This document shows, one piece after another, positions 680 through 15,879 of a DNA stretch of 18,528 bases. The stretch is taken from positions 1-18,528 of IMG/VR virus record IMGVR_UViG_2909739949_000002, one strand, 5' to 3'. Source of the stretch: a virus (lineage: Duplodnaviria > Heunggongvirae > Uroviricota > Caudoviricetes). Both the position numbers and the translations under genes were made by a program. The stretch's first letter is position 1. Each line of letters starts with the position of its first letter. The notes under the pieces were generated by a model. That model had not been told where the DNA came from. It saw only the letters and a program-made list of their open reading frames with translations, and did no database searches.

Positions 680-681
680 AT

Positions 682-3187: not shown

Positions 3188-3258
3188 AGTGTTAGTAGTT
3201 AACACTCTTTTTCTTTTCTTCTGTTCTTTAGTGAAGTTAACAATCAAAGGACAGAAGA
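3188..3258 (+). promoter_or_regulatory. cassette element 1 (variant): terminator-like hairpin + SD-occluding hairpin
   Basis: AGTGTTA/TAACACT + T tract; 13-bp stem TCTTCTGTTCTTT (3217-3229)/AAAGGACAGAAGA (3246-3258) enclosing AGTGAAGTTAACAATC. Confidence 0.75.
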
Positions 3259-3260
3259 CA

Positions 3261-3665
3261 ATGATTACTAAACAACAAGTACAAGAACTAGGTAGATTAC
3301 TTTCTAAGATTGGTGTGGAGGTTGTACCCCACACTAGCAAGAAAGCTAAGACTAAACTAGTTCGTAACCAACAAGCTTCTTACTATAGGAAGCAGATAGT
3401 CTATAGAGTAGGTTGTACCTATGACTCTATAGTGCATGAAGCAATCCACGCACTACAAGATTATCTAGGTACTCTAGTAGGTCTACCTGCTAGAGTAACC
3501 TCTTCAGTCAAAGCTAATCCTAAGTTCGCTTGGAGTATAGAAGCTGAAGCTTATACCAATGAGAACAACGCTACCCTAGTGATAGCTAAGTTCAAACAAG
3601 CTCTTGGTATGAATCTTTCCTTAGGAGAGAGGGTAGTAGTACTAATGAATAAGGTAGTGTTCTAA
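3261..3665 (+). CDS. HExxH zincin-like (ImmA/IrrE-like) protein (134 aa)
   Basis: SIVHEAIHALQ plus downstream IEAEAY; AAAGGA SD supports ATG 3261 over the track GTG 3189. Confidence 0.65.
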   Translation: MITKQQVQELGRLLSKIGVEVVPHTSKKAKTKLVRNQQASYYRKQIVYRVGCTYDSIVHEAIHALQDYLGTLVGLPARVTSSVKANPKFAWSIEAEAYTNENNATLVIAKFKQALGMNLSLGERVVVLMNKVVF

Positions 3666-3689
3666 TGATAGATATATACATATATCTAT

Positions 3690-3757
3690 CTATTATCAAT
3701 CTGGTGAATGATGGCGTACATTCCATCTAGTGAGGTTCGATTCCTCTAGATAATAGA
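3690..3757 (+). ncRNA. tRNA-like element copy 1 (diverged)
   Basis: CTATTAT/ATAATAG acceptor-like stem (extends to 15 bp, 3683-3697/3749-3763), CAATCTGGTGAAT connector, GATGG-CGTACATT-CCATC stem-loop, GAGG-TTCGATT-CCTC T-arm. Confidence 0.7.
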
Positions 3758-3822
3758 TAGATAGGTATATATCTATCCTTTTTTTATTTCTCTTCTAGTG
3801 ATGTTTACAGTACACACTGGAG
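3756..3822 (+). promoter_or_regulatory. cassette element 2
   Basis: GATAGATA/TATCTATC + T7; CTAGTG (3795)-N14-CACTGG (3815) AG, with the A>G change kept as a U-G pair. Confidence 0.85.
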
Positions 3823-3829
3823 AAATAAA

Positions 3830-4315
3830 ATGTCTTTAGTAAAAGAATACACCAACACTTCATTTAAAGCTATTAATAAATCTTTCAGGGAGAGAGTTCC
3901 TTCTGAGAAGGCTATTAATACTTTAAAGGAAATGGAAAGTTTACCTAGCCAAGTATTTCCATATTTAGCTAGGGGAACAAAGACCAAGCACTTACTTTCT
4001 GAAATAGAGGGTAATGTATGGTCTCCTAGAGGAATAGTAAGTACTAGTAGTTCCATCCAAGTTGCTAGAAAATTTGCTATTCACCATAATGAAAACTGCT
4101 TTGCCTCTTCTCAGGGTGAGGCCAGCTTAATAATTATGCTAGGAGCAGTTGGTAAAGACTTAAGCCTTTATACCTCATTCTCGAAAGAGAGTGAGGTAGT
4201 CTTATTAAATCCTTCTCTTAGAATTAAGTTTCTAAGAAATACAGATGAATATAAGATATGGATTGCAAGTAATCTTATATTCAGAGATGAAGAAATAGAT
4301 TACTTATTTAAGTAA
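3830..4315 (+). CDS. ADP-ribosyltransferase, R-S-E (C3/VIP2/T4 Alt-like) clade
   Basis: EYTNTSFKAINKSFR helix, YLARG catalytic Arg, VSTSSS motif, KESEVVL ExE motif, in canonical order. Confidence 0.85.
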   Translation: MSLVKEYTNTSFKAINKSFRERVPSEKAINTLKEMESLPSQVFPYLARGTKTKHLLSEIEGNVWSPRGIVSTSSSIQVARKFAIHHNENCFASSQGEASLIIMLGAVGKDLSLYTSFSKESEVVLLNPSLRIKFLRNTDEYKIWIASNLIFRDEEIDYLFK

Positions 4316-4320
4316 GGCAT

Positions 4321-4384
4321 AAAAGAGTAAGATAATTCTTACTCTTTTTTTATTTCTAGTGATGTTTTAGTGACAACACTAGGA
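4321..4384 (+). promoter_or_regulatory. cassette element 3
   Basis: AAAAGAGTAAGA-taat-TCTTACTCTTTT; CTAGTG (4356)-N15-CACTAG (4377) GA. Confidence 0.9.
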
Positions 4385-4388
4385 AAAT

Positions 4389-4793
4389 ATGTTTAACAAT
4401 ATCTCTGCAATTGAAACCGCTAACCAAGTCTATTCCTTCCATAAGGATAATGGATTTGGTTTAGATCCTTTCAGATTCAGTCATGATTTAGTTCACACTA
4501 TTCTAAACTTGTCTACTTCCATAGTAGAGGAGTTAGTAGTAACTTCTCTAGAGATGGAGAAGTTACTATCTTATGAAGAGTGTGAAGGGTTGAATAATCA
4601 AAACAATATTGATTACTCACTTAACAATGAGTGGTCAGTAGAGTTATATCAGCAAGTTGTAGAGAAATATAACTCTCTACCTGTTAAGAGCATTCTAGAA
4701 ATAGAATGCATGTCTGATATTAAATGGTGGAACGAGTTCTCTAGAGAACTCGAAGTACTTCATTTATCAGAGGATGAAGATTACTTATTCTAA
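4389..4793 (+). CDS. acidic hypothetical protein (134 aa)
   Basis: ATG 4389 after AGGA; no motif recognised. Confidence 0.75.
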   Translation: MFNNISAIETANQVYSFHKDNGFGLDPFRFSHDLVHTILNLSTSIVEELVVTSLEMEKLLSYEECEGLNNQNNIDYSLNNEWSVELYQQVVEKYNSLPVKSILEIECMSDIKWWNEFSRELEVLHLSEDEDYLF

Positions 4794-4798
4794 TAATT

Positions 4799-4862
4799 AA
4801 GAGTACTATTTAGTACTCTTTTTTTCTTTTCTCTTCTAGTGAACATTTACATTCACTAGGAG
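4799..4862 (+). promoter_or_regulatory. cassette element 4
   Basis: AAGAGTACT-attt-AGTACTCTT + T tract; CTAGTG (4836)-N12-CACTAG (4854) GAG. Confidence 0.9.
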
Positions 4863-4868
4863 ACTAGA

Positions 4869-5339
4869 ATGTTTACAGTTAGATTAAATAATGCTTCCTC
4901 TTTAACCTTCACAGTTTATGTGGAAGGTTATCCAGTACAAGTTGAAAAGTCCTTACCAGAAGAGGTTGATGCCTCTTATTGGGATGGAGATGACTTAGTA
5001 TTGGAATGCTCCTACAAGAGCGAGGAGGGGCGTAAAGCTTGGGCTCATACTATGAGATATCTAAAAGAGCAGTTTTGCCGAAAGCAAAATAGCTTTCTAG
5101 ATAAGATTAGAAACCCACAATATCAAACAGTTGTATCAGAGCTGAATGATATTAGAACATCGTTAGTCTCTCTATATAGAGAGAACACTGAAGTTCTTGC
5201 TAAAGAGCTAAAAGCTGAAAAAGGCAGCCCACAAAGATTTGTATATTCTGAAATATACAGAATCAACATGGATAAAATTCAATTCTTATTAGATCGTGAG
5301 AATGATTTATTAAGAGTAAAAGCTGAGTTATTAGCTTAA
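4869..5339 (+). CDS. hypothetical protein, paralog family A (with 8007-8552)
   Basis: Shares SLTFTV..EGYP..VE.SLPEEVD.S.W.G.DL.L.CS.K.EEG..AW.H...YLKEQF; helical C-terminus. Confidence 0.8.
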   Translation: MFTVRLNNASSLTFTVYVEGYPVQVEKSLPEEVDASYWDGDDLVLECSYKSEEGRKAWAHTMRYLKEQFCRKQNSFLDKIRNPQYQTVVSELNDIRTSLVSLYRENTEVLAKELKAEKGSPQRFVYSEIYRINMDKIQFLLDRENDLLRVKAELLA

Positions 5340-5343
5340 TAAG

Positions 5344-5409
5344 AAAAAGAGTAGGATAATTCCTACTCTTTTTCTTTTTCTTCTAGTGAACATTTACATT
5401 CACTAGGAG
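5344..5409 (+). promoter_or_regulatory. cassette element 5
   Basis: AAAAAGAGTAGGA-taat-TCCTACTCTTTTT; CTAGTG (5383)-N12-CACTAG (5401) GAG. Confidence 0.9.
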
Positions 5410-5415
5410 TGAATT

Positions 5416-5709
5416 ATGAAATCTTTATTCAATGAAATCATCTCTTTAGTTAGATCTGAATCTGCTGACGAAGTACTTGAAAGAGTACAACGTGAAAAGA
5501 AGGAAGCTCTAACTAATGGGCAGGTTTACGAGTTTTCTAAAGAGGACTTTCAAGTGATTAATGGTATTCGTCCAAAGTACACACAAGTACCAGCTATGTG
5601 GGGCTGGTATACTGCATTTGCTATTACCATCTTAATGATGGTAGGTACTGCATCTAGACAGTATCTAATGTACTGTAATACTACCTCTAACCAAGAGGTA
5701 GTTAAGTAA
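5416..5709 (+). CDS. hypothetical single-pass membrane protein (97 aa)
   Basis: WGWYTAFAITILMMVGTA hydrophobic segment. Confidence 0.75.
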   Translation: MKSLFNEIISLVRSESADEVLERVQREKKEALTNGQVYEFSKEDFQVINGIRPKYTQVPAMWGWYTAFAITILMMVGTASRQYLMYCNTTSNQEVVK

Positions 5710-5715
5710 CTAATT

Positions 5716-5775
5716 AAAGAGGGGAGAAATCCTCTCTTTTTTCTTCTAGTGATGTTTTAGTGACAACACTAGGAG
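5716..5775 (+). promoter_or_regulatory. cassette element 6
   Basis: AAAGAGGGGA-gaaa-TCCTCTCTTT; CTAGTG (5746)-N15-CACTAG (5767) GAG. Confidence 0.9.
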
Positions 5776-5781
5776 AAATAT

Positions 5782-6207
5782 ATGCCTAATAAGTTTGAAG
5801 AGTTAGTTGACCTATGCCGCTCTTGTGGCATTAAAGTTGACTTAAACCCCTTCTGCTCAAGGGGGAATAACTACAGATCGGGCTGGATCGAATTAGATTT
5901 CAGGAATGAATATCTACCTGAATATCTCAAAAGGACAGGACTTTCTCTCATAGAATACCAATTCTATGGGTTGTTGCATGAGTTGGGTCATGCAACCCAC
6001 CTTGATGAACATATCAATTCCTTTACCTCTAAGGTAGAGGAAGAGCAAGATGCCTGGGAACGGGCATACCACATCCATTGCCTCTTGTGGGGTGAGCCAC
6101 CACTTGAATTCCATATAGCATGGATAGATGCCATTCAAACCTATCATCAAGCTGCTGCTGAATTGGCAGCACTGCCTGAAGAGAAAAGAAGAAGACCTAA
6201 ATGGTAA
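5782..6207 (+). CDS. HExxH zincin-like (ImmA/IrrE-like) protein (141 aa)
   Basis: GLLHELGHATH ... EEEQDAWERA. Confidence 0.7.
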   Translation: MPNKFEELVDLCRSCGIKVDLNPFCSRGNNYRSGWIELDFRNEYLPEYLKRTGLSLIEYQFYGLLHELGHATHLDEHINSFTSKVEEEQDAWERAYHIHCLLWGEPPLEFHIAWIDAIQTYHQAAAELAALPEEKRRRPKW

Positions 6208-6213
6208 ATAGAG

Positions 6214-6274
6214 AAAGAGGGGAGAAATCCTCTCTTTTTCTTTCTCTTCTAGTGAACATTACATTCACTAGGAG
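6214..6274 (+). promoter_or_regulatory. cassette element 7
   Basis: Same terminator as element 6; CTAGTG (6249)-N11-CACTAG (6266) GAG. Confidence 0.9.
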
Positions 6275-6282
6275 AGAAACCT

Positions 6283-6846
6283 GTGAAAATTTCTGTAAGA
6301 TTTGAAATCCATCCTACCTACATTTCTAAATTTGTTACTGAACGTCACTCTTCCCAAGGAGTGGCTGTTGCTGCTAAGAATCTAGAAACAGGAGAAGTAG
6401 GATGGCTCCATGTCTGCCATAAATGGAATCTACAGAGAAGCGCTGTAGAAAAAGCCAAGTGGATAATAACTTGCGGTCTTCCCAGTAAATATAATCATCT
6501 CTCTCCTTTTGGAGGGAATGAGAAGTATTTAGTAGATACCAAGTTAGAAGGATGCATACTCACCGCTTCTATTTGGAAGGATGAATATCCTTCCTGCACT
6601 CCATTAGAAGGATACTCTTGGGGAGAAGAGTCTTCTTCTAATGACAGTTCTCCATTTCCCACTGTGGAGTGTCCATATGAAGCTTTCACTCCAGAGTGGC
6701 AAGCTTGGTGGGACGGATACTATTCCGTAATGGAGACTAACGAAGATTGGGATGAAGTAGATCCCAATCTAGACTACGAGGACGATGTAAATGCTTGGTG
6801 CTACAGAGTGCCAAGTAGAAACCTAAGAATCATATTAGGTTCCTAA
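6283..6846 (+). CDS. hypothetical protein, paralog family B (with 6917-7498), acidic C-terminus
   Basis: GTG start after AGGAG; GWLHVCH...AKWIITCGLPSKYNHLSPFGG. Confidence 0.75.
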   Translation: MKISVRFEIHPTYISKFVTERHSSQGVAVAAKNLETGEVGWLHVCHKWNLQRSAVEKAKWIITCGLPSKYNHLSPFGGNEKYLVDTKLEGCILTASIWKDEYPSCTPLEGYSWGEESSSNDSSPFPTVECPYEAFTPEWQAWWDGYYSVMETNEDWDEVDPNLDYEDDVNAWCYRVPSRNLRIILGS

Positions 6847-6856
6847 TTAAATACTG

Positions 6857-6910
6857 GGAGGGTAACACCTCCTTTTTTCTCTTCTAGTGAACTCTTTACA
6901 TCACTAGGAG
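6857..6910 (+). promoter_or_regulatory. cassette element 8
   Basis: GGAGG-gtaaca-CCTCC + T6; CTAGTG (6884)-N12-CACTAG (6902) GAG. Confidence 0.9.
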
Positions 6911-6916
6911 AACAAT

Positions 6917-7498
6917 ATGTCTTACATGAAAGTTATCTTCAATGTAACTTCTCAAGTACCTGCCTCTATAGGAGGAATAGGGGAAGTTGTAGTTGCAGAA
7001 CTGAATGGTAAGAAAGGACTATTGTATATTACTCATTCCAATCATGTGGATGAGATGCTAGCTATCCAAGCAACATGGATAGTTAGTTGTTACTTACCAA
7101 AGAAGTGGGCACACAAATGTCCCTTTGGAGGCAGAAGTAGTAATACTACAGTAGAACGATTGACTATTAAAGACAGATCAGATCTCTTTATAGTTCAATG
7201 CTATTACTCTCTGAAAGGAGAGTATATAGACATTTGTGCAGTTCCCATGTACTCCATTGTACAGAGCGAAGAGTACCAACAATTCGTATCTGAAATATTT
7301 GGAGTCTATGAACAAGTGAAAGCTTGGGGAACATATAGCAAACACGGAATAATGTTTGCTATAGCTAACCACTTACCTGAAAAGTGGCAGCACTTTAAGT
7401 CCTATGTTGTATACACTCTTAGAAAACAAGAGTATATCAATGCAGGAAGAGATTTCTCTTATGGAGTTATCTGTATTGAGATTGATGAACTCGAATAA
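6917..7498 (+). CDS. hypothetical protein, paralog family B (193 aa)
   Basis: GLLYITH...ATWIVSCYLPKKWAHKCPFGG; a second LPEKWQH-like motif near the C-terminus. Confidence 0.75.
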   Translation: MSYMKVIFNVTSQVPASIGGIGEVVVAELNGKKGLLYITHSNHVDEMLAIQATWIVSCYLPKKWAHKCPFGGRSSNTTVERLTIKDRSDLFIVQCYYSLKGEYIDICAVPMYSIVQSEEYQQFVSEIFGVYEQVKAWGTYSKHGIMFAIANHLPEKWQHFKSYVVYTLRKQEYINAGRDFSYGVICIEIDELE

Positions 7499-7508
7499 AT
7501 AAATATGC

Positions 7509-7571
7509 GGAGGGTAACACCTCCCTTATTTCTTTTCTCTTTTGTTGACATCTCTGCAACACAACAAGGAG
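7509..7571 (+). promoter_or_regulatory. cassette element 9 (compensatory variant)
   Basis: GGAGG-gtaaca-CCTCC; TTGTTG (7542)-N14-CAACAA (7562) GGAG. Confidence 0.85.
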
Positions 7572-7576
7572 AAAAA

Positions 7577-7936
7577 ATGTTTCAAAGATTATTTGAGTTA
7601 ATTGCTAATGCGGGTTTAATTGTTCGCTTGAACAATATAGACTGCCATTACAATTACATGTCTAGGTCTATAAATATAAAACCAGAACAAATAGTAGACA
7701 TGTCTAAAGGATGTCTACTATCTAAGGTAGAAGTAGAATTCTACACTACCTTACATGAGTTCGGCCACTCTCTACAACCAGTAGAGATGATTGACAAAGC
7801 TCATATGACAGGTAACTTCTATCCTCTAGAAGAGGATGCTTGGAATAGAGCTGAAGAAGTATATAAAGAGAACTGGGGAAATCCCCCAGAAGAGTTCTAT
7901 ATGTTCAGAGATTACTCTCTGGACACCTATAAATAA
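7577..7936 (+). CDS. HExxH zincin-like (ImmA/IrrE-like) protein (119 aa)
   Basis: TTLHEFGHSLQ ... LEEDAWNRA; AAGGAG SD supports ATG 7577 over the track 7505. Confidence 0.7.
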   Translation: MFQRLFELIANAGLIVRLNNIDCHYNYMSRSINIKPEQIVDMSKGCLLSKVEVEFYTTLHEFGHSLQPVEMIDKAHMTGNFYPLEEDAWNRAEEVYKENWGNPPEEFYMFRDYSLDTYK

Positions 7937-7942
7937 ATAATT

Positions 7943-7999
7943 GGTAGGTATTATCCTACCTTTTTTCTTTTCTAGTGAAGTTTACATCCTCACTAGGAG
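7943..7999 (+). promoter_or_regulatory. cassette element 10
   Basis: GGTAGG-tattat-CCTACC + T6; CTAGTG (7972)-N13-CACTAG (7991) GAG. Confidence 0.9.
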
Positions 8000-8006
8000 A
8001 GAAAAG

Positions 8007-8552
8007 ATGTTTGTACTAAAACTAAATGATTGTCAAAATTCTTTAACCTTCACAGTCTTTGCTGAAGGTTATCCAATAACAGTTGAAAGATCGCTTCCAG
8101 AAGAAGTTGATTCAAGTTTCTGGATTGGAAAAGATTTATATCTTCTTTGTTCCTTCAAAGGAGAAGAAGGGGAGGGTGCTTGGAAACACTCTCTCCAATA
8201 TCTTAAAGAACAATTTCTACCCTCTATGGTAGAAACTCTTGATGAAGAGAAGTACAAAAACTATTTCAATAAGATAGAAAAGTACCAATCTGCTTCCAAG
8301 GCGGAACTCTTAACTTTCTTAGAAGAAGCAAGAGAAGAGTGGCAATCATATGTAAACTTGCAAATTAAATTCTCCAAAGAAGGTCAGCAGGCCTTAGAAG
8401 CTTCGAGGCTTCTCTTTGGAAATAGCTCTGAGAAATGGGCTCTTGAGCAAGTATATAATGTGTGTCGGAAGCAGGAAATTGCTTTAGGGAAGAAGAGAAA
8501 CCAAGCAGAAGAAACGAAGCAGATGCTAATTAGATTAATTTACTGCTCATAA
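8007..8552 (+). CDS. hypothetical protein, paralog family A (181 aa)
   Basis: N-terminal ~70 aa similar to 4869-5339; SD supports ATG 8007 over the track TTG 7941. Confidence 0.8.
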   Translation: MFVLKLNDCQNSLTFTVFAEGYPITVERSLPEEVDSSFWIGKDLYLLCSFKGEEGEGAWKHSLQYLKEQFLPSMVETLDEEKYKNYFNKIEKYQSASKAELLTFLEEAREEWQSYVNLQIKFSKEGQQALEASRLLFGNSSEKWALEQVYNVCRKQEIALGKKRNQAEETKQMLIRLIYCS

Positions 8553-8556
8553 TTAG

Positions 8557-8614
8557 AAAAGAGGGGATTGCTCCCCTCTTTTCTTTTCTAGTGAAGTTTA
8601 TAACTCACTAGGAG
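8557..8614 (+). promoter_or_regulatory. cassette element 11
   Basis: AAAAGAGGGGA-ttgc-TCCCCTCTTTT; CTAGTG (8588)-N12-CACTAG (8606) GAG. Confidence 0.9.
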
Positions 8615-8621
8615 AAATTAT

Positions 8622-9293
8622 ATGTCCACTTTAAATACTGCTGACTTAGCTTATTCTAACTGTAACTCTATCTCTGCAATAGGGATAGATATAGAAATAG
8701 AAACGCTACGTGCTCAGTTAGCTGCTGCTCAGGCTCGTATAGCTGAATTAGAAGCTGAGGTAGAACAGCTATCTACTAACCCTAACTTCAATACTCTTAA
8801 TAGAGTGGCTGGCTTGAATAAAGCTAAAGCTGCTATTAGAGAAGATAGAAGAAGAAAGCCAAATGGGACGATAACTCTAGTTACTATTGACATTGGTGGA
8901 ATGGGTAACAGTAACTCTTCTAGAGGAGAAATAGCTACTAATGAGGCTATGACTGAATTACTAGAAGAGATTCGTACTTCTTTCAGAAGTGGGGATATAC
9001 ATCTCCTTACTGATGGGCAACTAAACTCAGGTGATGAGTTTCTCTTTTGGTTATCAGTAGATGTTGGAGATATAAGTGGCATTATAGGCAGACTAGATAC
9101 TATGTCTAAGAAACATGGCTTTGAAGGTGCTTATTGTGGTCATGTTCAAGTAGAAGGTTCTCCATCTACTATTGATGAGCTAGGTCTAATAGCTAATCAA
9201 GGAATGGAGCAGGTATATCCAGTTAAGAAACAGATTAAGGCGGCTAAGAAATTAGCTGTTAAGAAGTCTATCTTATGGAGAGGCTTTAGATAA
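8622..9293 (+). CDS. coiled-coil + degenerate GGDEF (diguanylate cyclase-like) domain protein
   Basis: LSTNPNFNTLNR, LVTIDIGGMGNSNSSRGE..TN, FRSGDI, LNSGDEFLFWL follow the GGDEF pattern D.LTgl.NR / DiD.FK..ND..GH..GD / R..D / R.GGDEF. Confidence 0.75.
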   Translation: MSTLNTADLAYSNCNSISAIGIDIEIETLRAQLAAAQARIAELEAEVEQLSTNPNFNTLNRVAGLNKAKAAIREDRRRKPNGTITLVTIDIGGMGNSNSSRGEIATNEAMTELLEEIRTSFRSGDIHLLTDGQLNSGDEFLFWLSVDVGDISGIIGRLDTMSKKHGFEGAYCGHVQVEGSPSTIDELGLIANQGMEQVYPVKKQIKAAKKLAVKKSILWRGFR

Positions 9294-9303
9294 TTAATAT
9301 ATT

Positions 9304-9366: not shown

Positions 9367-9831
9367 ATGTTTAACTTAAAAGGTATTGTTGAGAAATATC
9401 AATCATTAACTAGTGCAGAGATATCTCTGCATTCTCTCAGAGTTAATCCTACTATATGGATTGATGAAGAGGAAGTAGATATCTTCTGTTCTTATATACA
9501 GGAGATAAACCTTATTACGATTCTCATTGATGAAGTAATAATGATTGCTAGAGACAATAACTGGGAACCTGAAGAGGTCTTTGAGTACATTCTAGTTCAT
9601 GAGATAGGTCACAGCCTTGACCCTGAACTAGAAGAACTTAACTCTCAGTTAGTCAACAATGAAGAATTGAGTGAAGTTAAGTTCCGGGCAGAGGTTAACG
9701 CTTGGAAGATAGCTGACACTATTATTCCAGAACAAACTCTAAGGTATAAAATCCTTAGAGCTAACTGCTTAGAAGCTTATAGTGAAGGGCATCCTGAATG
9801 GAGAGATAAGTGGTGTCCTGATTACTTCTAA
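9367..9831 (+). CDS. HExxH zincin-like (ImmA/IrrE-like) protein (154 aa)
   Basis: YILVHEIGHSLD ... AEVNAWKIA. Confidence 0.7.
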   Translation: MFNLKGIVEKYQSLTSAEISLHSLRVNPTIWIDEEEVDIFCSYIQEINLITILIDEVIMIARDNNWEPEEVFEYILVHEIGHSLDPELEELNSQLVNNEELSEVKFRAEVNAWKIADTIIPEQTLRYKILRANCLEAYSEGHPEWRDKWCPDYF

Positions 9832-9844
9832 TTAAATAAAGATA

Positions 9845-9913
9845 GGGGAGAAATCCCCCTTCTTTCCTTCTAGTGACAGTTAGCAATACAGCTATCTAAA
9901 TTTTCACTAGGAG
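9845..9913 (+). promoter_or_regulatory. cassette element 13 (long loop)
   Basis: GGGGA-gaaa-TCCCC; CTAGTG (9870)-N29-CACTAG (9905) GAG with inner TAGC/GCTA stem. Confidence 0.85.
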
Positions 9914-9920
9914 AAAAATC

Positions 9921-10592
9921 ATGTTGAATAAAATATTTGACAAGCTATCAAATATCTTCTCTTCTACTAACTATAATATGGGGCTTTATGCTCCTATATG
10001 GTTAAAACATTTCTTCTTCGGAAAGGGAGAAGATATGATACTAGAAAATAGTCATCCTTTAGTCTTAAAGGAGGTCAAGAATATAACAGGATTCACAAGC
10101 CCTTTAACTGAAGGATTATGGCTTGGTAGAACTGGTATTATGAGAGCCCATGATCTTTCTGGATTCTACTGGTGTGTAGGCACCTACAAATGGAAAGCAG
10201 TAGAAGAGCTAGAAGATTCTTGGATTCTAGAATGTGAAGACTATTTTGACTTTCATAGATCTGGAAAAGAAGGTACTTGGGAATTTAGATTCCCAATTAA
10301 GTATAAGAAATGGATAGAAGGATTAAGACCCTTATGTCCATTTCCTTATACTGTAGAAAAGCCCTTCAAAGCAAGTTATTCATCTGAAAGAGAAAGAGAT
10401 GAAGAGCTTGCTAAAGAATTCTTCATAGTGTGCTTTGTTGAAACAGACCTCAATAAGTGGGGTAAATCATTCTTTACTAAATGGAGAATGATTATATCTA
10501 AAGAAGCATTAGATATGGTTTATGTCAAACCTATTTCAGAAGATGAAGAATATGAAGGAGAATACGAACCTTCTGAAGATTATGAAGACTAA
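9921..10592 (+). CDS. hypothetical protein (223 aa), acidic tail
   Basis: SD-led ORF; only a weak colicin-M-like motif resemblance (see findings). Confidence 0.75.
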   Translation: MLNKIFDKLSNIFSSTNYNMGLYAPIWLKHFFFGKGEDMILENSHPLVLKEVKNITGFTSPLTEGLWLGRTGIMRAHDLSGFYWCVGTYKWKAVEELEDSWILECEDYFDFHRSGKEGTWEFRFPIKYKKWIEGLRPLCPFPYTVEKPFKASYSSERERDEELAKEFFIVCFVETDLNKWGKSFFTKWRMIISKEALDMVYVKPISEDEEYEGEYEPSEDYED

Positions 10593-10601
10593 ATAAAGAT
10601 A

Positions 10602-10656
10602 GGGGAGAAATCCCCCTTCTTTCTTTCTAGTGAACACTCTACTTCACTAGAAGGAG
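10602..10656 (+). promoter_or_regulatory. cassette element 14
   Basis: Same terminator as element 13; TTCTTTCTAGTG (core 10627)-N12-CACTAGAAGGAG (core 10645). Confidence 0.9.
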
Positions 10657-10664
10657 AATCTAAT

Positions 10665-10802
10665 ATGTCTAGCGATAAGCAACTTACTTTGGTTGTAATC
10701 TTAGTATCTGCTGTAGTATCTACAGCATTAGTAATTCAAGGGTTATATTTATCCTTGAATGTTAAAGCACAGCCAATTACTAACGAGAGAGTAACTCGTT
10801 AG
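10665..10802 (+). CDS. small single-pass membrane protein (45 aa), not in the ORF track
   Basis: Translated by hand: MSSDKQLTLVVILVSAVVSTALVIQGLYLSLNVKAQPITNERVTR; AAGGAG SD; fills a complete cassette. Confidence 0.8.
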   Translation: MSSDKQLTLVVILVSAVVSTALVIQGLYLSLNVKAQPITNERVTR

Positions 10803-10813
10803 TAATAATTATA

Positions 10814-10867
10814 GGGGAGATATCTCTCCCCCTTTTTCTTCTAGTGATAACCAACATTCACTAGGAG
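10814..10867 (+). promoter_or_regulatory. cassette element 15
   Basis: GGGGAGA-tatc-TCTCCCC + T tract; CTAGTG (10841)-N12-CACTAG (10859) GAG. Confidence 0.9.
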
Positions 10868-10873
10868 AATGTG

Positions 10874-11365
10874 ATGCTAGTAGTTAAATTTGTTCCTACC
10901 TTCAATGACAACTCTATGCTAAAGAGTGCTGAAGAAGTAGCATGGCAACTACGTGGAAATGTAGTTGATGGAGAAGTATACGTCTGCATTGATATTATGC
11001 TTCCTCATATAAAAATGTATGCTACATCCAAGCAGATCGTTAAACATCTTATGCTTCAACTTCACTTGTTTGGGGTTGGGGTGCAAGGGTGTCCTTCTGT
11101 TGATAATAATTTTCAAGGAGATTGTAGAGAGTCAGGAGCCTTCTCTTGTATCTACGATCAAATTGAAGATCTATATAGACAGACAGAAGAGAGAGGTCTT
11201 GTAACTCTTAAGACTTTTACTAAAATGAACTTAGCTAAAGTAAAGATTATGGAAGAGAAATTCAAAGCTCTCCATAAGAAAGAAATAGAAGTCTTAAGAT
11301 TTGCTTTTCTGCATCAAGTACAAACAAGACATGAAGAGTTTGTAAGAAAGCAACGGCATAAATAA
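10874..11365 (+). CDS. hypothetical protein, paralog family C (with 11505-12089)
   Basis: MLVVKFVPTF..NSML..AE.VAWQ.RGNVVDGEVYVCID...KHLMLQL..FGVGV.GC shared; GTG 10871 is an alternative start. Confidence 0.8.
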   Translation: MLVVKFVPTFNDNSMLKSAEEVAWQLRGNVVDGEVYVCIDIMLPHIKMYATSKQIVKHLMLQLHLFGVGVQGCPSVDNNFQGDCRESGAFSCIYDQIEDLYRQTEERGLVTLKTFTKMNLAKVKIMEEKFKALHKKEIEVLRFAFLHQVQTRHEEFVRKQRHK

Positions 11366-11375
11366 AAAAGAGATA

Positions 11376-11443
11376 ACTAACTCTATCTGGTGAAAGTGAG
11401 TGTACATACTCATGAAAGAAAGGTTCGATTCCTTTAGTTAGTA
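11376..11443 (+). ncRNA. tRNA-like element copy 2
   Basis: ACTAACT | CTATCTGGTGAAA | GTGAG-TGTACATA-CTCAT | GAAAG | AAAGG-TTCGATT-CCTTT | AGTTAGT | A. Confidence 0.8.
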
Positions 11444-11497
11444 GGGGAGAAATCCCCCCCCTTTTTTCTTTCTAGTGATAACAATATTCACTAGGAG
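11444..11497 (+). promoter_or_regulatory. cassette element 16
   Basis: GGGGA-gaaa-TCCCC + C/T tract; CTAGTG (11472)-N11-CACTAG (11489) GAG. Confidence 0.9.
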
Positions 11498-11504
11498 TGA
11501 AGAA

Positions 11505-12089
11505 ATGCTAGTAGTTAAATTTGTTCCTACCTTCTCTGAGAATTCAATGTTACAAACTGCTGAAGACGTTGCTTGGCAGTTTCGTGGTAATGTAGTAGAT
11601 GGGGAGGTATATGTCTGCATTGATTTAATTCTTAACTCAAATAAAGTAGTGTATAAATATCAAGTCGTAAAACACTTGATGTTACAACTATTAATGTTTG
11701 GTGTTGGAGTTAAAGGATGCACCCAAATAGATAAAGATTTTGTGGGTTATGCTTGCAATATTGTAGAAACCTTCAAACCTCTAGAGGAACAGCTAGAGGA
11801 AATTTATTTCCGTGACGATAAGCACGGAATTATATCTGCCAAACGGTATCAAAAGCTGAATGGCATTCCTAACCCTTACTACTCTAAAGAAGAGGATGAT
11901 AAGTACAATGAAAAAATTGAGAAGATAAAGTATGACTACTTCCAAAGAGAAACTCTTAATATCTTAAAAAGATATGTCCAAGGGACACATGAGGCTAAAG
12001 TTAAACGTCAAATGGAAGAGAAAAGATTCAATTCAATGGTGTCTGAAACATGGGTACTAGAAGGAGATGATTTAGTACAAATTAAATAA
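11505..12089 (+). CDS. hypothetical protein, paralog family C (194 aa)
   Basis: Tandem paralog of 10874-11365; SD supports ATG 11505 over the track 11475. Confidence 0.8.
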   Translation: MLVVKFVPTFSENSMLQTAEDVAWQFRGNVVDGEVYVCIDLILNSNKVVYKYQVVKHLMLQLLMFGVGVKGCTQIDKDFVGYACNIVETFKPLEEQLEEIYFRDDKHGIISAKRYQKLNGIPNPYYSKEEDDKYNEKIEKIKYDYFQRETLNILKRYVQGTHEAKVKRQMEEKRFNSMVSETWVLEGDDLVQIK

Positions 12090-12098
12090 GAAGAGATA

Positions 12099-12166
12099 AC
12101 TAACTCTATCTGGTGAAAAGTGGCGTACATTCCACTTAAAGAAAGGTTCGATTCCTTTAGTTAGTA
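12099..12166 (+). ncRNA. tRNA-like element copy 3
   Basis: ACTAACT | CTATCTGGTGAAA | AGTGG-CGTACATT-CCACT | TAAAG | AAAGG-TTCGATT-CCTTT | AGTTAGT | A. Confidence 0.8.
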
Positions 12167-12168
12167 TT

Positions 12169-12232
12169 GGGGATTAATTTCCCCCTCTTTTACTTTTTAG
12201 TGAATAGGTTGTATTCACTAAAAAGTAAAAGA
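12169..12232 (+). promoter_or_regulatory. cassette element 17 (perfect 21-bp palindrome variant, no GGAG)
   Basis: GGGGA-ttaatt-TCCCC; TCTTTTACTTTTTAGTGAATA-ggttg-TATTCACTAAAAAGTAAAAGA. Confidence 0.85.
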
Positions 12233-12234
12233 TA

Positions 12235-12648
12235 ATGAGTATTAAACAACTACGCGCTGAAATCTCTCTACTTAAAGTTGAGTTAGCTAACACTGAGTTA
12301 GCTTATCAAAAGTTAAAGGCAGAGTACTCTGCTACCTACCTAGTTAATCTAGGTGGAGTAATAGTAGATAGAATGCAGGTAGAGGAAGATTTATTCTGGG
12401 CAGACTTTGATCCAGAAGAAGATGATTACTGGGAATATCTAGGTAAATTATACTGTACTGCTTCTGAAGAGCATATACAGGAAATAGGTCGTCATAGAGA
12501 TATCATTCTTGGGTTAAAAGACTTACCCCAAGAATGTTGTTCTATCTTCATCTCTCTTGAAGAGAAAAGAGAACAATTAGCAGAACTAGAAGATAAAGCT
12601 AGTAATAGATTTATGTATCTATTAGAAATGCTAGGTAACTTATTCTAA
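12235..12648 (+). CDS. acidic coiled-coil hypothetical protein (137 aa)
   Basis: Heptad-like N- and C-termini; no SD. Confidence 0.7.
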   Translation: MSIKQLRAEISLLKVELANTELAYQKLKAEYSATYLVNLGGVIVDRMQVEEDLFWADFDPEEDDYWEYLGKLYCTASEEHIQEIGRHRDIILGLKDLPQECCSIFISLEEKREQLAELEDKASNRFMYLLEMLGNLF

Positions 12649-12656
12649 TAGTATTG

Positions 12657-12712
12657 GGGTGGTGTAATGCCACCCTTTTACTTTTCTAGTGACTAACTAC
12701 ATTCACTAGGAG
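12657..12712 (+). promoter_or_regulatory. cassette element 18
   Basis: GGGTGGT-gtaat-GCCACCC + T4; CTAGTG (12686)-N12-CACTAG (12704) GAG. Confidence 0.9.
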
Positions 12713-12719
12713 AGAAAAC

Positions 12720-13151
12720 ATGTCTAATATTATTCCAGGTATTGACATTACATTAGATGAAAACAGAGGGAAGAAGGTAGCTAATGCGGCTGCCTTGGAT
12801 TTCCCTAGACCTGTACTCTTCCAATGTGAGAAGGGTTACAGATTCATGTTGTGTCATGGTGATTCTAATGGAGGAATTGTCCATGAAGATAAGATAGTTA
12901 GCCCATTAGAGTGGGTAACTACTTTATTTCAGTTAAAACCTGAACTAGCTCAAGGAGATCTTTACTTACTCTGCTGTCATCAAGATAAGCAGGTAGGTGG
13001 GGGTATTCCTGGCGGCGAGTTAATTATTCCATTCCCTGAGTGGCAAGGGGAGAACAAAATCTCCATAGGTGAAACTATGGATGATGGATGGGTTTTAAGT
13101 TTCTATAATAAGAAACTTTGGAGAGAAAGAAAAGCCTGGATAGATAAATAA
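12720..13151 (+). CDS. hypothetical protein, possible caspase/CHAT-like His-Cys peptidase fold
   Basis: RFMLCHG followed ~35 aa later by DLYLLCC. Confidence 0.4.
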   Translation: MSNIIPGIDITLDENRGKKVANAAALDFPRPVLFQCEKGYRFMLCHGDSNGGIVHEDKIVSPLEWVTTLFQLKPELAQGDLYLLCCHQDKQVGGGIPGGELIIPFPEWQGENKISIGETMDDGWVLSFYNKKLWRERKAWIDK

Positions 13152-13157
13152 ACATTT

Positions 13158-13225
13158 AGGGGAGATATCTCCCCTTTTTCTTCTAGTGAAGTTAACAATC
13201 CCGTTAACAAAAGTTTCACTAGGAG
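13158..13225 (+). promoter_or_regulatory. cassette element 19 (long loop)
   Basis: AGGGGAG-atat-CTCCCCT + T tract; CTAGTG (13183)-N28-CACTAG (13217) GAG with inner GTTAAC/GTTAAC stem. Confidence 0.85.
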
Positions 13226-13232
13226 AAAAAGA

Positions 13233-13712
13233 ATGTTACAAGTTAAACTATCTCAAGCTAAGAATGGATTACATATCATTAGCACTAATGTATTGATGAT
13301 TGATATTGATTGCAAAGGGCCTGGTCACAAAGATATGGCGAGTATATCTGCAAAGAGCAGGGCAGAAGCAGCAAACAGATTGATTACCTTCTCTAAAGAA
13401 GAACAACTTCCTATAGTAATCTACCCTACTAGAAGTGGAGTGCATTGCTATCTATTAGATAGACTACGTGATAGTAGAGATGCCGAGTCTTTACTGCTAA
13501 TGACTAGAGTTGGCTGCGATGCTAACTATATAGGTTTGACTTTGTTAAGTCAGACTGGATTATGGAATGAACGTATTAGTCCGAAGAAAGATAGAGAGGA
13601 ATTTCCTCCTATCTATGGATTTCAATTTGGGCCGAGTGAGAAGATTCATCCACTGTGCCAGAAGTGGATTGATATTAGAGGTGGGTTTATAAGCCGTCGT
13701 TGGAAGTTATAG
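13233..13712 (+). CDS. hypothetical protein, possible AEP/PrimPol-like catalytic core
   Basis: LMIDID (hhhDxD) and IYPTRSGVHCY (S/TxxGxH). Confidence 0.45.
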   Translation: MLQVKLSQAKNGLHIISTNVLMIDIDCKGPGHKDMASISAKSRAEAANRLITFSKEEQLPIVIYPTRSGVHCYLLDRLRDSRDAESLLLMTRVGCDANYIGLTLLSQTGLWNERISPKKDREEFPPIYGFQFGPSEKIHPLCQKWIDIRGGFISRRWKL

Positions 13713-13764
13713 AACTTGATTCTATTATTCCCTAGAGATAGGGAGTAACACTACTACACAATAG

Positions 13765-13827
13765 AGGGGCATTCCCCTTTTTTTCTTTCTAGTGAACTTT
13801 ATGGGCACTCAGCCCATTCACTAGGAG
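13765..13827 (+). promoter_or_regulatory. cassette element 20 (long loop)
   Basis: AGGGG-catt-CCCCT + T tract; CTAGTG (13789)-N24-CACTAG (13819) GAG with inner ATGGGC/GCCCAT stem. Confidence 0.85.
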
Positions 13828-13833
13828 AATAAA

Positions 13834-14367
13834 ATGTTTAAGGTAATTATGATCGACAAAAAGAAATATAACCTTCTATCTGAAGGAGCCAATGGAAAGG
13901 TTATAGAGCTTGATTCTAATAGAGTTGCAAAGATATTTGAATTAGGCGACTCTAAAAGAGAAACTTCTCTTATGCAACAAGCTAATCAAATAAACGAATT
14001 AGTCTGTAAATTTCTTAAAACCGAGTTTACTTCTAACTACAGCAAAGAATTAATGATTATGGAGAGGTTATATCCTCTTCAATACAGAGCTATTACTGTT
14101 GTAGAAAGAGAAAGAATGTTTGAGGAATTTATCAAACAAATAAAAGAACTACATTCTAATGGTTTTGCTCATTGGGATATAAAGCGTCCATCTCATGCAG
14201 TATCTAGTTCTGATAGATACTGGGACAATATAATTCTAACAAGAGATGGGATTCGCCTAATAGATACAGGTAACTCAGTATCTACTGAAGATCCAGATTT
14301 TGAAGAAGCTTGTGAAGATGACATTAGATCAGCTATGGAATTTAAGAAGATATTTCTGATTCCATAA
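13834..14367 (+). CDS. minimal protein kinase-like protein (177 aa)
   Basis: LSEGANGKV Gly loop, VAKIF Lys, RE alphaC Glu, MIMERL hinge, HSNGFAHWDIK...DNIIL catalytic loop, IRLIDTG DFG-equivalent. Confidence 0.85.
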   Translation: MFKVIMIDKKKYNLLSEGANGKVIELDSNRVAKIFELGDSKRETSLMQQANQINELVCKFLKTEFTSNYSKELMIMERLYPLQYRAITVVERERMFEEFIKQIKELHSNGFAHWDIKRPSHAVSSSDRYWDNIILTRDGIRLIDTGNSVSTEDPDFEEACEDDIRSAMEFKKIFLIP

Positions 14368-14394
14368 ATGATCTAATCGCTTTTAGCAACATAT

Positions 14395-14423
14395 AAAAGG
14401 GGTTAATTTAACTCCCCTTTTTC
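14395..14423 (+). terminator. intrinsic terminator after the kinase
   Basis: AAAAGGGG...CCCCTTTTTT. Confidence 0.7.
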
Positions 14424-14674
14424 TTAAGGGTCTCATAGACTGAAATCTATAAATCAAAATTTAAGGCTAGTTTATATAACACATTTACATGAATTAGCAA
14501 GAAGAAATATGAATTATATTAATTAAGTGTGGTTAATTTAAGTATAAGAAAATATATATACATAAACAAAAGCTTATACAGTAAGTAATATTACTGATTA
14601 AATATATTTACATTTAAATAAAAATATTTACCTAGCGGGGAGAAAAAAAGAAATATACCTAGTCCCCCTTTTTA

Positions 14675-14710
14675 TTTTTGGTGAAGTTTACTTTCCCAGA
14701 AAGGGGAGGA
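14675..14710 (+). promoter_or_regulatory. cassette element 21 (degenerate; SD outside the stem)
   Basis: TTTTTGG(T)GAA-gtttact-TTCCCAGAAA followed by GGGGAGGA; upstream GGGGA...TCCCC + T tract. Confidence 0.5.
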
Positions 14711-14716
14711 ATTAAT

Positions 14717-15790
14717 ATGTCTTTGTTTGCAAAGTTACGTGCTGCTGCTAACAACGTTGAAGTGAGCGTCGAAGCTGCTCCCGCTAAACTCTCTGATACC
14801 TTTGCTAAGTATTACGAGAAGGGACAAATGATTGTCGCTATCAACGTTGGAGCTAATGAGAAATATTACGAACGCAGAGGAAGTGAAGATAAATCTTCTA
14901 CTCCTATTGTGTCTAATAAGATGGGCATACGTCTTAACCAAGACGGAAGTGTATTCGTAAAAGGTTTAATGACTGGGATATTCTACTGGTCTGAAAACCG
15001 CAAGTCTTGGATAGCTCCACCAGCAGTAGAGAAGAATAAGGAAGGTATAGAAGTTCCTGGTATCAAGTCTAAGCCACAAGGTTTTATTGGTACCTACATG
15101 GGTGGAATATTATTTACCCTGAATGACTATATCAGCCGTATGCAAGAAGATGGAGAGATTGAACTGGCCGCAAAAGTAGAGAAGTTGAAGAAAGATAAAC
15201 TAACTCTATCCTTTATGTGTCAGCAAGAAATCTCCTTTGACTTGCCTTGCTCCCATGACCAAGTTATTGAGCAAGCTGATCGCTTACGCGCCGAAAGACA
15301 AATAGCTTTAGATTCAGGTAAGAAAGCAGGTGTATTAGGCAATACTTTAGTCTTAGCAATAACTCTAGAGTTCAGCGAAAATCCTGATGCATTTATGACT
15401 CCCATAGTCAAAGTGCAAAAGGTACTTAGCTGGACTGAAGACTACATGCCTCTAGAAACTTGTGGGAAACTGCGGGTGGATGGAGAAATGGCTGAAGACC
15501 TGGAAGCCTATGCTATCGAACAAACCTTCAATGAGAAAGAAGCCGAAATCAAAGCCGCCAACGCAATGGCTCAAGCTGCGATTAATCTTTTAACTCCAGA
15601 TGAAGGAGGCGTTGCTGGTACTCGTACTAGTCGTCGTACTGCTGACTATAAGAGAGCTCGCCGTAAACAGAAGCAGGAGCAATTTCTACTCAATGAAGCC
15701 GCAAGGAATCTAGAAGTAGAACAATCCAAAGCTGAAGTTGAAGAGATCGATGAAGACGATATGATGTCTATGTCAATGGGAGGTATCTAA
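14717..15790 (+). CDS. hypothetical protein (357 aa) with basic patch and acidic C-terminal tail
   Basis: GGAGG SD supports ATG 14717 over the track GTG 14678; ends EVEEIDEDDMMSMSMGGI. Confidence 0.8.
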   Translation: MSLFAKLRAAANNVEVSVEAAPAKLSDTFAKYYEKGQMIVAINVGANEKYYERRGSEDKSSTPIVSNKMGIRLNQDGSVFVKGLMTGIFYWSENRKSWIAPPAVEKNKEGIEVPGIKSKPQGFIGTYMGGILFTLNDYISRMQEDGEIELAAKVEKLKKDKLTLSFMCQQEISFDLPCSHDQVIEQADRLRAERQIALDSGKKAGVLGNTLVLAITLEFSENPDAFMTPIVKVQKVLSWTEDYMPLETCGKLRVDGEMAEDLEAYAIEQTFNEKEAEIKAANAMAQAAINLLTPDEGGVAGTRTSRRTADYKRARRKQKQEQFLLNEAARNLEVEQSKAEVEEIDEDDMMSMSMGGI

Positions 15791-15812
15791 TTATTTAATT
15801 GAATAGGGGATA

Positions 15813-15873
15813 GGGAGGAAACTCCCCCTCTTTTCTTTCTAGTAGGGCATTTACTTTACCAGCCCACTAGGAG
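15813..15873 (+). promoter_or_regulatory. cassette element 22 (bulged variant)
   Basis: GGGAG-gaaa-CTCCC; CTAGT(A)GGGC (15839)-N13-GCCCACTAG (to 15870) GAG. Confidence 0.85.
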
Positions 15874-15879
15874 AAATAT

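Follow-up and report, generated by a model that had tools for sequence, protein, structure and literature searches.

A stretch of 18,528 nucleotides (the window) was analysed, which corresponds to positions 1-18,528 of the 168,414-bp IMG/VR virus record IMGVR_UViG_2909739949_000002 and whose source is treated here as a large cyanophage related to Fukuivirus. Twenty-two consecutive plus-strand genes of the window, with starts from 3261 to 15880, are each preceded by the same kind of two-part element, in which an intrinsic-terminator-like hairpin with a T run is followed within a few bases by a second hairpin that includes the Shine-Dalgarno (SD) sequence of the next gene. Structure predictions and comparisons among genomes support the view that the second hairpin has been selected as a sense-strand structure that covers the SD sequence. 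It is proposed, with moderate confidence, that in any RNA carrying the 5' arm this hairpin silences translation of the cistron that follows, and that the element also serves as a junction for the recombination of gene cassettes. Related phages, among them the cultured Microcystis phage Ma-LMM01, retain the shape of the hairpin although its sequence changes, so the element is real; as a means to gate and exchange genes it is apparently undescribed, no description of it having been found.

Architecture of the element

The second hairpin forms by pairing of a pyrimidine tract plus CTAGTGA with TCACTAG plus the SD sequence AGGAGA. The module is roughly 65 nt long, is reused 22 times, and has the motif TCACTAGGAGA in this phage. 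CTAGTG-N(11-29)-CACTAG occurs 16 times on the plus strand of the window, compared with 0.04 expected from 200 shuffles, and with GGAG attached the 168,414-bp record has 14 copies of the motif, none of them outside 4836-13827. Terminator-like sites number 68 in the window, where 8.8 are expected. All 22 upstream regions fold as a hairpin that includes the SD sequence (stems of 8-21 bp, loops of 5-27 nt), with a mean free energy of -20.8 kcal/mol and a mean z of -4.6 relative to dinucleotide shuffles. A first-pass annotation of this DNA had described the element ahead of all the plus-strand genes from 3261 to 15880, with 16 exact copies and six variants and with the pyrimidine tract extending the stem so that the SD sequence is buried. 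Motif counts, folding and a terminator scan confirm this description, and the SD sequence lies within the predicted stem in each of the 22 folds.

The six variant copies are those at 3795, 7542 and 12197 and those of units 1, 21 and 22. Two have compensatory arm changes, TTGTTG/CAACAA at 7542 and TTAGTG/CACTAA at 12197, and the CACTGG variant at 3795 gives a U.G pair, while units 1 and 21 have stems other than the CTAGTG type. Units 1, 2 and 21 have atypical terminators, and copies of the element are not mutually independent, some of the genes being paralogous. A covariance model built from 16 copies recovers 20 of the 22 units on the plus strand at E<0.02 and has no match at E<0.1 in the rest of the genome (the other 150 kb and the first 2.8 kb), in keeping with the earlier claim that the element is missing before 2817; the model also picked out Ma-LMM01. 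A scan of Rfam gave only sub-threshold, miRNA-like chance matches and no family near its gathering score. Searches with the exact motif in IMG/VR (42 matches) and in GTDB genomes (at least 120) returned single chance matches, among them a conserved Nostoc coding sequence, and no further array.

Evidence for a sense-strand hairpin over the SD sequence

Forty-six elements from nine genomes were aligned on the first G of the SD sequence. This G is paired in 46 of 46 elements, the second G in 45 of 46 (31 as U.G) and the next A in 42. At each of five positions in the inner stem (-2 to -6), pairing occurs in 34-45 of the 46 elements and involves three to five different standard pair types, two to four of which are Watson-Crick. 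Predicted stability is greater for the sense than for the antisense strand in 43 of 47 elements (means of -14.0 and -10.8; Wilcoxon 8e-9), and covariance-model scores are ~51 bits on the plus strand versus ~27 on the minus strand. Over positions -15 to -5 the predicted pairing probability is 0.92 in the array, compared with 0.44 in 44 further genes of this genome that have an SD sequence (Mann-Whitney p 1e-10), and where other genes of the genome follow terminator-like hairpins their SD sequences are predicted not to be occluded. AGGAGA is the ordinary SD sequence of this phage and is also present after unrelated GGCGGC hairpins. In unit 17 the ribosome-binding site (RBS) region, AAAAAGTAAAAG, is non-canonical and the upstream tract is its exact complement, indicating that the pyrimidine tract covaries with the RBS.

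Covariation within and between the nine genomes, the G.U asymmetry and the difference in SD pairing argue that the hairpin was selected as a structure of the sense strand. The pairing, strand and unit 17 statistics also argue against a double-stranded operator and against a hairpin of the template strand. A dimeric DNA operator was rejected, as the spacing varies, the arms covary and the two strands differ in stability.

Distribution among related phages and exchange of cassettes

The element is not unique to the window and is found throughout a lineage of Ma-LMM01-related cyanophages. The same two-part element precedes syntenic small genes in Ma-LMM01, MaMV-CH01 and MaMV-DH01, and occurs in five uncultured relatives represented by the metagenomic contigs L183, L184, L186, L188 and L191. 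In all relatives that have the element, the element-bearing block lies 5' of a gene for a giant protein of 1,400-2,000 amino acids (aa), and most, though not all, of the small genes ahead of the giant gene bear the element, with other arms. Ma-LMM01, MaMV-CH01 and MaMV-DH01 have a terminator followed by CCTTCTAG-loop-CTAGGAGG, with the compensatory variants CCTTCTGG/CCAGGAGG and CCTTG/CAAGG. The arms are CTGACCC/GGGTCAG and CTGTA/TACAG in L184, CTGGGGA/TCCCCAG and CTGTCA/TGACAG in L183, CCTGT/ACAGG, CTGTT/AACAG, CTGTCC/GGACAG and CCTGA/TCAGG in L191, and ATGGGG/CCCCTA in L188. Arm sequences vary both between and within genomes while complementarity is kept; the L184 orthologues of g11 and g20 (genes are numbered here by unit), which share 62% aa identity with them, carry L184 arms rather than those of this phage. 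The structure persists in genomes that range in GC content from 33% to 44%.

No equivalent element was found in the early region of Ma-LMM01 (gp054-063). The homologous element-bearing genes of Ma-LMM01, gp064-gp067, are placed in middle class B5, with low values at 1 h (PMC5780444, Table S3), so the element-bearing block should not be assumed to be early. The earlier proposal of region-wide post-transcriptional control is partly supported, namely as regards an SD-covering sense-strand hairpin. An early character of the whole block is not supported. The transcriptome study of Ma-LMM01 found no phage-specific motifs and left the temporal programme unexplained (PMC5780444). Two Ma-LMM01 copies of the element (minus strand of NC_008562, 19956-19988 and 20851-20884) are not followed immediately by an annotated gene; there are probably unannotated small open reading frames (ORFs), or a longer gp065, between gp065 and gp067.

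Cassette number differs among Ma-LMM01, CH01 and DH01, and the blocks of homology between Ma-LMM01 and MaMV-CH01 or DH01 start and stop on elements. At an inserted cassette specific to CH01, the two flanking blocks share the 5' part of one element. Because indel breakpoints among the Microcystis phages fall on the element, it is regarded as a recombination junction for the gain and loss of cassettes. Within the array, the terminator half and the hairpin half have the same nearest relative in one of the 22 units and different nearest relatives in 21. The hairpins are much more alike than the paralogous proteins, and hairpin similarity does not track gene paralogy. The suggestion that the element might be a junction for cassette shuffling, with whole units gained or lost between relatives, is directly supported both by the breakpoints and by the reassortment of the halves.

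A model for gating and exchange

In the proposed model, each junction would be a composite cassette boundary at which the upstream gene closes with an intrinsic terminator. The U/C-rich tail of this terminator, a mimic of the anti-SD sequence (UCUUCU), would form the 5' arm together with the genome-specific extension CUAGUGA, and the 3' arm would be the complementary extension UCACUAG joined to the ordinary SD sequence AGGAGA of the next gene. In any RNA with the 5' arm, whether from read-through or polycistronic, the RBS of the next cistron would be buried and the cistron would be off by default, such that translation would require the 5' arm to be removed or melted. Relief could come from endonucleolytic cleavage in the loop or linker, the loops being enriched in UUUACA and ACA, from a helicase or binding factor, or from transcripts that start inside the hairpin as in T4 e and soc. 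The same element would act as a patch of homology for the gain, loss and reassortment of whole hairpin-ORF-terminator cassettes. The read-through RNA, the actual repression of translation and the means of its relief are the parts of this model that we infer.

A doubtful extension of the model is that the arms are a recognition code, and that a trans-acting factor of the phage reads the arm and the UUUACA loop and turns on the whole block, including the giant gene. Such a factor could be a sequence-specific nuclease, an RNA-binding protein, or the giant protein if that is a two-barrel RNA polymerase, and in every lineage of phages it would evolve in step with the arms. If true, the arm code would constitute a regulon-wide riboregulatory or hairpin-promoter system of a kind that has not been described in phages.

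The model would place termination, translational gating and cassette exchange, which are usually separate, in one module that is conserved in a cyanophage lineage including cultured, bloom-relevant Microcystis phages. The element and the adjacent giant, possibly polymerase-like protein are testable candidates for the control of the temporal programme of Ma-LMM01. The element also offers a natural, modular design for an insulated cistron and a marker for the fast-evolving block of accessory genes in uncultured relatives.

Alternative explanations

It is possible, although unlikely, that the element is a promoter read at the DNA level, each cassette being its own transcription unit with RNA that starts near the SD sequence. 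The polymerase could be the host enzyme, recognising only a -10 box within the loop, or else an enzyme that is modified or particular to the phage, perhaps the giant protein, and the inverted repeat would be either a recognition element or only a silencer of read-through RNA. Several observations favour such a promoter or otherwise weigh against translational gating. The main weakness of a purely RNA-based explanation is that a good terminator after every gene leads one to expect a promoter before every gene, and promoter-coupled terminators are reported to be common in bacteria (bioRxiv 10.64898/2026.08.19.745784). With 22 good terminators in series, a single long transcript is implausible unless termination is leaky or suppressed, and if there is a start site inside the hairpin at each gene then the hairpin is absent from the main mRNA. 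TACATT, TATAAC or TAAATT stands directly 5' of the 3' arm in about half of the copies in this phage, and some loops in Fukuivirus contain a perfect TATAAT, with TTTAAT and TATATT also occurring among them. The TATAAT of the gp066 element is unchanged between Ma-LMM01 and CH01 while three of the six other loop bases differ, and the copy ahead of gp064 retains TAGTGG...TATATT without an SD sequence or a good stem. This phage and Ma-LMM01 have the same conserved 5' motif, TTCTAGTG(A/G), even though protein identity is ~26%. The adjacent giant protein has a C-terminal double-psi beta-barrel and a motif, RTP...H...NRGDGDGD, that we take to be like one of the RNA polymerase beta' subunit. Within this genome covariation is weak, with four of 13 pairs changed on both sides and 88.9% of cells paired versus 86.3% in shuffles, because the copies are nearly uniform in arm sequence. 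In addition, the hairpin stabilities are predictions, and the elements on metagenomic contigs depend on gene starts that were assigned in this analysis.

The promoter is disfavoured by the composition and geometry of the element. The earlier statement that the units leave no room for a sigma-70 promoter held up, as no -35/-10 pair fits them and sigma-70-like sites in the window are fewer than expected (48 versus 59.5), none being recurrent in the units. The loops show no excess of TAnnnT over shuffled loops (17 versus 15.5, p 0.37), and many copies lack it. The hexamer 16-18 nt after the loop motif TTTACA or TTAACA is not -10-like, save for two chance cases that overlap the start codon. TTTACA was rejected as a -35 box since the matching -10 box would run into the start codon, TACATT as a -10 box of general use since it is not enriched, and TTTACAT as a genome-wide promoter word since it is not used upstream of other genes and is absent outside the array. 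The loops of 5-27 nt leave no fixed geometry between the arms, the arms covary so that no single sequence is kept, and in unit 17 the stem follows the RBS region itself. Folding is worse on the antisense (template) strand, whereas N4-type hairpin promoters lie on the template strand. A T7-like promoter, suggested by the TCACTA-GGAGA resemblance, was rejected given that no PF00940 polymerase was found and that positions -17 to -5 are unconserved in long-loop copies. The second barrel of the giant protein was not recovered. A layout of the T4 e/soc type, in which an internal promoter serves the gene and read-through RNA is silenced, would reconcile both sets of facts.

Translational gating must also be weighed against the improbable alternative that the element is a signal for RNA processing or stability, at which RNase III, RNase E or a toxin-type nuclease (ACA/UACAU) would cut a long or read-through transcript between or within the paired hairpins. 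As in the early region of T7, the upstream mRNA would keep the terminator hairpin as protection at its 3' end and the downstream mRNA a stem at its 5' end, and occlusion of the SD sequence would be secondary or relieved by the cut. Two stable hairpins do adjoin at every junction, stems of 11-21 bp are found, and tRNA-like modules, which are typical processing signals, are present in the 3' untranslated regions of three array genes and on the contig L185. Stems of 8-13 bp with G.U pairs are short for RNase III, however, and the early region of T7 has one terminator at its end rather than one per gene. Loops across genomes are enriched in ACA (25 versus 13.4) and in TTTA and TTA[AC], and it is often UUUACA or CUACA that adjoins the 3' arm on its 5' side. 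The enrichment of ACA and UUUACA may mark contact with a nuclease or protein, but it is only a lead because common ancestry of the copies inflates the counts. It is very unlikely that the element has no regulatory role and is a selfish or neutral recombination patch homogenised by gene conversion, with SD pairing incidental to the pyrimidine tract. The hairpins are near-identical between non-paralogous genes, their two halves reassort, the indel breakpoints fall on the elements and U/C tracts pair readily with AGGAGA, all as a neutral patch would have it. Against this, compensatory changes of the inner stem occur within and between genomes independently of the U tract, orthologous genes with wholly different arms are still paired, the structure withstands the range in GC content, and other genes behind terminator-like hairpins in the same genome leave the SD sequence unoccluded.

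Comparison with other phage systems

In T4 the genes e, soc, 49 and I-TevI have RBS-sequestering hairpins that silence a longer read-through transcript. These are isolated cases, in which a late or middle promoter within the hairpin relieves the silencing. The array is similar in that the RBS is predicted to be buried in the longer transcript, with the SD sequence in the stem in all 22 units, but it differs in comprising 22 consecutive genes that share one terminator-fused design with arms homogenised across the genome. With respect to an internal promoter, TAnnnT is not enriched here although TATAAT or TACATT is present in a subset of copies.

The PeSL of T4-type phages combines a terminator stem-loop with a sigma-70 early promoter, such as TTTACW-N17-TAYWAT, and lies beside ORFan genes in plastic regions where indel junctions between close relatives occur at the module (PMC4122927). 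The present element likewise is a stem-loop module that flanks ORFans and at which homology between Ma-LMM01 and CH01 or DH01 breaks. Its second half, in contrast, is an SD-occluding hairpin and contains no sigma-70 -35/-10 pair. Start-associated sequences (SAS) of Cluster K mycobacteriophages are 13-bp motifs, GGGATAGGAGCCC, located 3-8 bp upstream of start codons (PMC3203893). SAS and extended SAS (ESAS) are repeated asymmetric motifs that overlap the RBS, some copies having imperfect inverted repeats with a variable spacer, and a translational role is suspected (PMC3203893). Like the element, they recur over the RBS directly ahead of the start codon at many genes. The SAS is a 13-mer of fixed sequence with the ESAS repeat upstream of it, whereas the 13-bp consensus is not found here, the inverted repeat includes the SD sequence, covaries and is coupled to a terminator, and the hosts and phages are unrelated.

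RNase III sites in the early region of T7 and the activation of the lambda N leader by RNase III illustrate how processing may make an RBS accessible while a hairpin is kept to protect the 3' end. In T7, as in the array, successive cistrons are separated by hairpins of a similar kind, but T7 has one terminator per region while the array has one per gene and its cleavage is hypothetical. The promoters of the N4 virion RNA polymerase are template-strand hairpins with a stem of 5-7 bp and a 3-nt loop. N4 and this phage both have a conserved hairpin ahead of genes and code for a giant polymerase-like protein. The stems and loops of the element are larger than those of N4, though, and with the antisense strand less stable in most elements it does not match a template-strand hairpin.

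The giant protein g22

The last gene of the array encodes g22, a protein of 2,031 aa whose ORF runs from 15880 beyond the window end at 18528 to position 21975 of the record (record coordinates are denoted G000; L051:880-6975). Counterparts with 35-55% identity are present on L183, L184, L186, L187 and L188, and the C-terminal part has a 35% identical match on L191. The protein also matches Ma-LMM01 gp064 weakly; a search of IMG/VR with g22 gave no match. RGDG forms an invariant core of the family, which in most members reads RGDGDGD and follows RTP...H; a KGRGIGIKAV motif is also present, and Ma-LMM01 gp064 has QRTP...NEGDADGDQ. The sequence RTP...H...NRGDGDGD resembles the catalytic motif NRAPTLH...NADFDGD of the RNA polymerase beta' subunit, and KGRGIGIKAV resembles a catalytic motif of the beta subunit. 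The C-terminal 90 residues were modelled as a double-psi beta-barrel, with Z of ~8 to domains of this type and 6.3 to the P23-45 gp96 RNA polymerase. No barrel was obtained for the region around KGRGIGIKAV (best Z of 4.3), so a second barrel was not recovered, and comparison of g22 with PDB and Pfam sequences gave no match. Assignment of g22 as an RNA polymerase is only a hypothesis, since the second barrel was not recovered; the C-terminal barrel is the supported part.

The g22 ORF ends inside the motif (GDGDGK-stop), as do the ORFs of five of 20 homologues. The next ORF (G000 22280-22885) encodes a LAGLIDADG endonuclease (E 2.5e-21) and is flanked by 304 and 648 nt of non-coding DNA. The stop inside the motif and the LAGLIDADG ORF next to it suggest an intervening sequence, an intron-like insertion in the catalytic motif, although no group I match was found in Rfam and exon 2 was not located.

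The individual units

Starts of the 22 genes were re-derived, and those of the mechanically called ORFs at 3189, 7505, 7941, 10871, 11475 and 14678 are wrong, all lying inside elements. All units are on the plus strand. Unit 1 (3188-3258) has a weak terminator-like stem at 3188-3206, a T/C tract and a divergent SD hairpin, CTGTTCTTT/AAAGGACAG, at 3217-3258 ahead of the gene at 3261-3665, with a model E of ~6.7. Unit 2 (3756-3830) combines an AT-rich terminator stem and T7 with the U.G variant hairpin CTAGTG/CACTGG (E 2e-5; gene 3830-4315). The terminator of unit 3 is at 4321-4348 and its hairpin, with the SD sequence GGAA, at 4353-4385 (gene 4389-4793). Unit 4 (4799-4869) has its terminator at 4799-4820 and its hairpin core at 4832-4862, followed by the gene at 4869-5339. 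For units 5 to 8 the terminators and hairpins are, respectively, at 5341-5376 and 5375-5412 (gene 5416-5709), 5716-5739 and 5740-5778 (gene 5782-6207), 6210-6241 and 6241-6279 (gene 6283-6846, with a GTG start), and 6856-6873 and 6880-6911 (gene 6917-7498). Unit 9 follows a terminator at 7509-7524 with a hairpin at 7533-7575 in which the arms are rewritten as TTGTTG/CAACAA (E 1e-4; gene 7577-7936).

Units 10 to 12 have terminators at 7943-7960, 8555-8584 and 9304-9329 and hairpins at 7961-8007, 8584-8615 and 9330-9362, which precede the genes at 8007-8552, 8622-9293 and 9367-9831. In unit 13 (terminator 9844-9860) the hairpin at 9867-9913 has a 27-nt loop with a nested stem (gene 9921-10592), and in unit 14 (terminator 10601-10617) the hairpin at 10620-10657 has the SD sequence AAGGAG (gene 10665-10802). 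Unit 15 comprises a terminator at 10814-10831 and a hairpin at 10836-10869 (gene 10874-11365), and unit 16 a terminator at 11444-11457 and a hairpin at 11462-11505 (gene 11505-12089). The terminator of unit 17, at 12169-12184, is followed by a perfect 21-bp hairpin at 12186-12232, the 5' tract of which, CTTTTACTTTTTAGTG, matches the non-canonical RBS region CACTAAAAAGTAAAAG (gene 12235-12648). Unit 18 has its terminator at 12656-12676 and hairpin at 12676-12718 (gene 12720-13151). Nested stems occur within the hairpins of unit 19 (terminator 13158-13175, hairpin 13174-13231 with GTTAAC in the loop, gene 13233-13712) and unit 20 (terminator 13763-13780, hairpin 13778-13834 with GGGC/GCCC, gene 13834-14367). 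Unit 21 (14637-14710) has a long-loop terminator-like stem, GGGGAG...CCCCC, a T tract and a divergent hairpin of CCCCCTTTTT with GAAAGGGGAGG at 14663-14710 (model E ~5; gene 14717-15790). In unit 22 a terminator at 15813-15826 precedes the hairpin CTAGT(A)GGGC/GCCCACTAG at 15832-15876, which has a bulged A plus GGGC/GCCC (E 0.019), and the giant gene at 15880-21975.

Gene content and other features

The 168,414-bp record is a section of a 359,493-bp contig (JACJQF010000002.1) in assembly GCA_014696495.1. The 9 kb located 5' of the window (L062:1-9038) have the GC content (33%), strand and GGCGGC hairpins of the window, so the phage element extends beyond the IMG/VR record, and the provirus boundary at window position 1 looks arbitrary. 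This upstream DNA codes for polysaccharide synthesis, with glycosyltransferases, a Wzy-like protein, a flippase, a pyruvyl transferase and a cellulase. For the largest virion-type protein, identity to proteins of Microcystis phage Ma-LMM01 and its relatives is 26%, and a megablast search of the whole window against phages gave no match. No Pfam family matched the array proteins above its curated cut-off, there being only weak sub-threshold matches. Four paralogous groups are present in the array (g4/g10, g6/g9, g7/g8 and g15/g16, with 24-55% identity), and g12 is weakly similar to g9. No homologue of g15 was found except its paralogue, while g21 (357 aa) has homologues on metagenomic contigs.

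The 371-nt gap ahead of the array (2817-3188) contains two copies of a ~34-nt repeat, GCTTCTATCTCATTCTTCAATA(G/A)AAGAGG(G)AGCTA, two copies of GGTAAAAGGTTGGATA and a strong AT-rich terminator-like stem at 2885-2914, and it may be a control region or entry promoter of the array. A 310-nt AT-rich gap ahead of unit 21 (14368-14677) contains ATTTACAT and ATTTACC repeated three times; the word repeated there is the same one that recurs in the hairpin loops. The tRNA-like modules of the three array genes lie between the stop codon and the terminator (~3690-3757, 11376-11443 and 12099-12166) and have a canonical GGTTCGATTCC T-arm and a GUACAU loop. ARAGORN called no tRNA. The similar module on L185 (GGTGGTTCAATTCCACC with GGTACATTC, at ~30-80) is 5' of a g21 homologue.

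The sequence CTCCTAGTGA is a perfect complement of the 3' arm plus the SD sequence (TCACTAGGAG). Outside the array it occurs three times on the plus strand, at G000 35012 (intergenic), 43225 and 61285, where ~0.2 copies are expected, and an RNA carrying it could pair with every SD sequence of the array.

A second conserved family of intergenic hairpins, TAGGCGGC-N(7-8)-GCCGCCTA, is represented in the window at 1438-1458 and 2590-2609. It has ~26 plus-strand copies in the 168-kb record and its upstream flank (for example G000 28271, 44656, 58628, 72589, 97163 and 152795, and L062 811, 6681 and 9009), usually 15-30 nt 5' of an SD sequence and start codon, and none within the 22-gene array. The phage therefore has at least two region-specific classes of junction hairpin. 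The large terminase (1,020 aa; G000 146177-149239, minus strand; L058:1177-4239) has an internal segment that matches endonuclease/primase PHROGs, which suggests an intein or an inserted nuclease domain.

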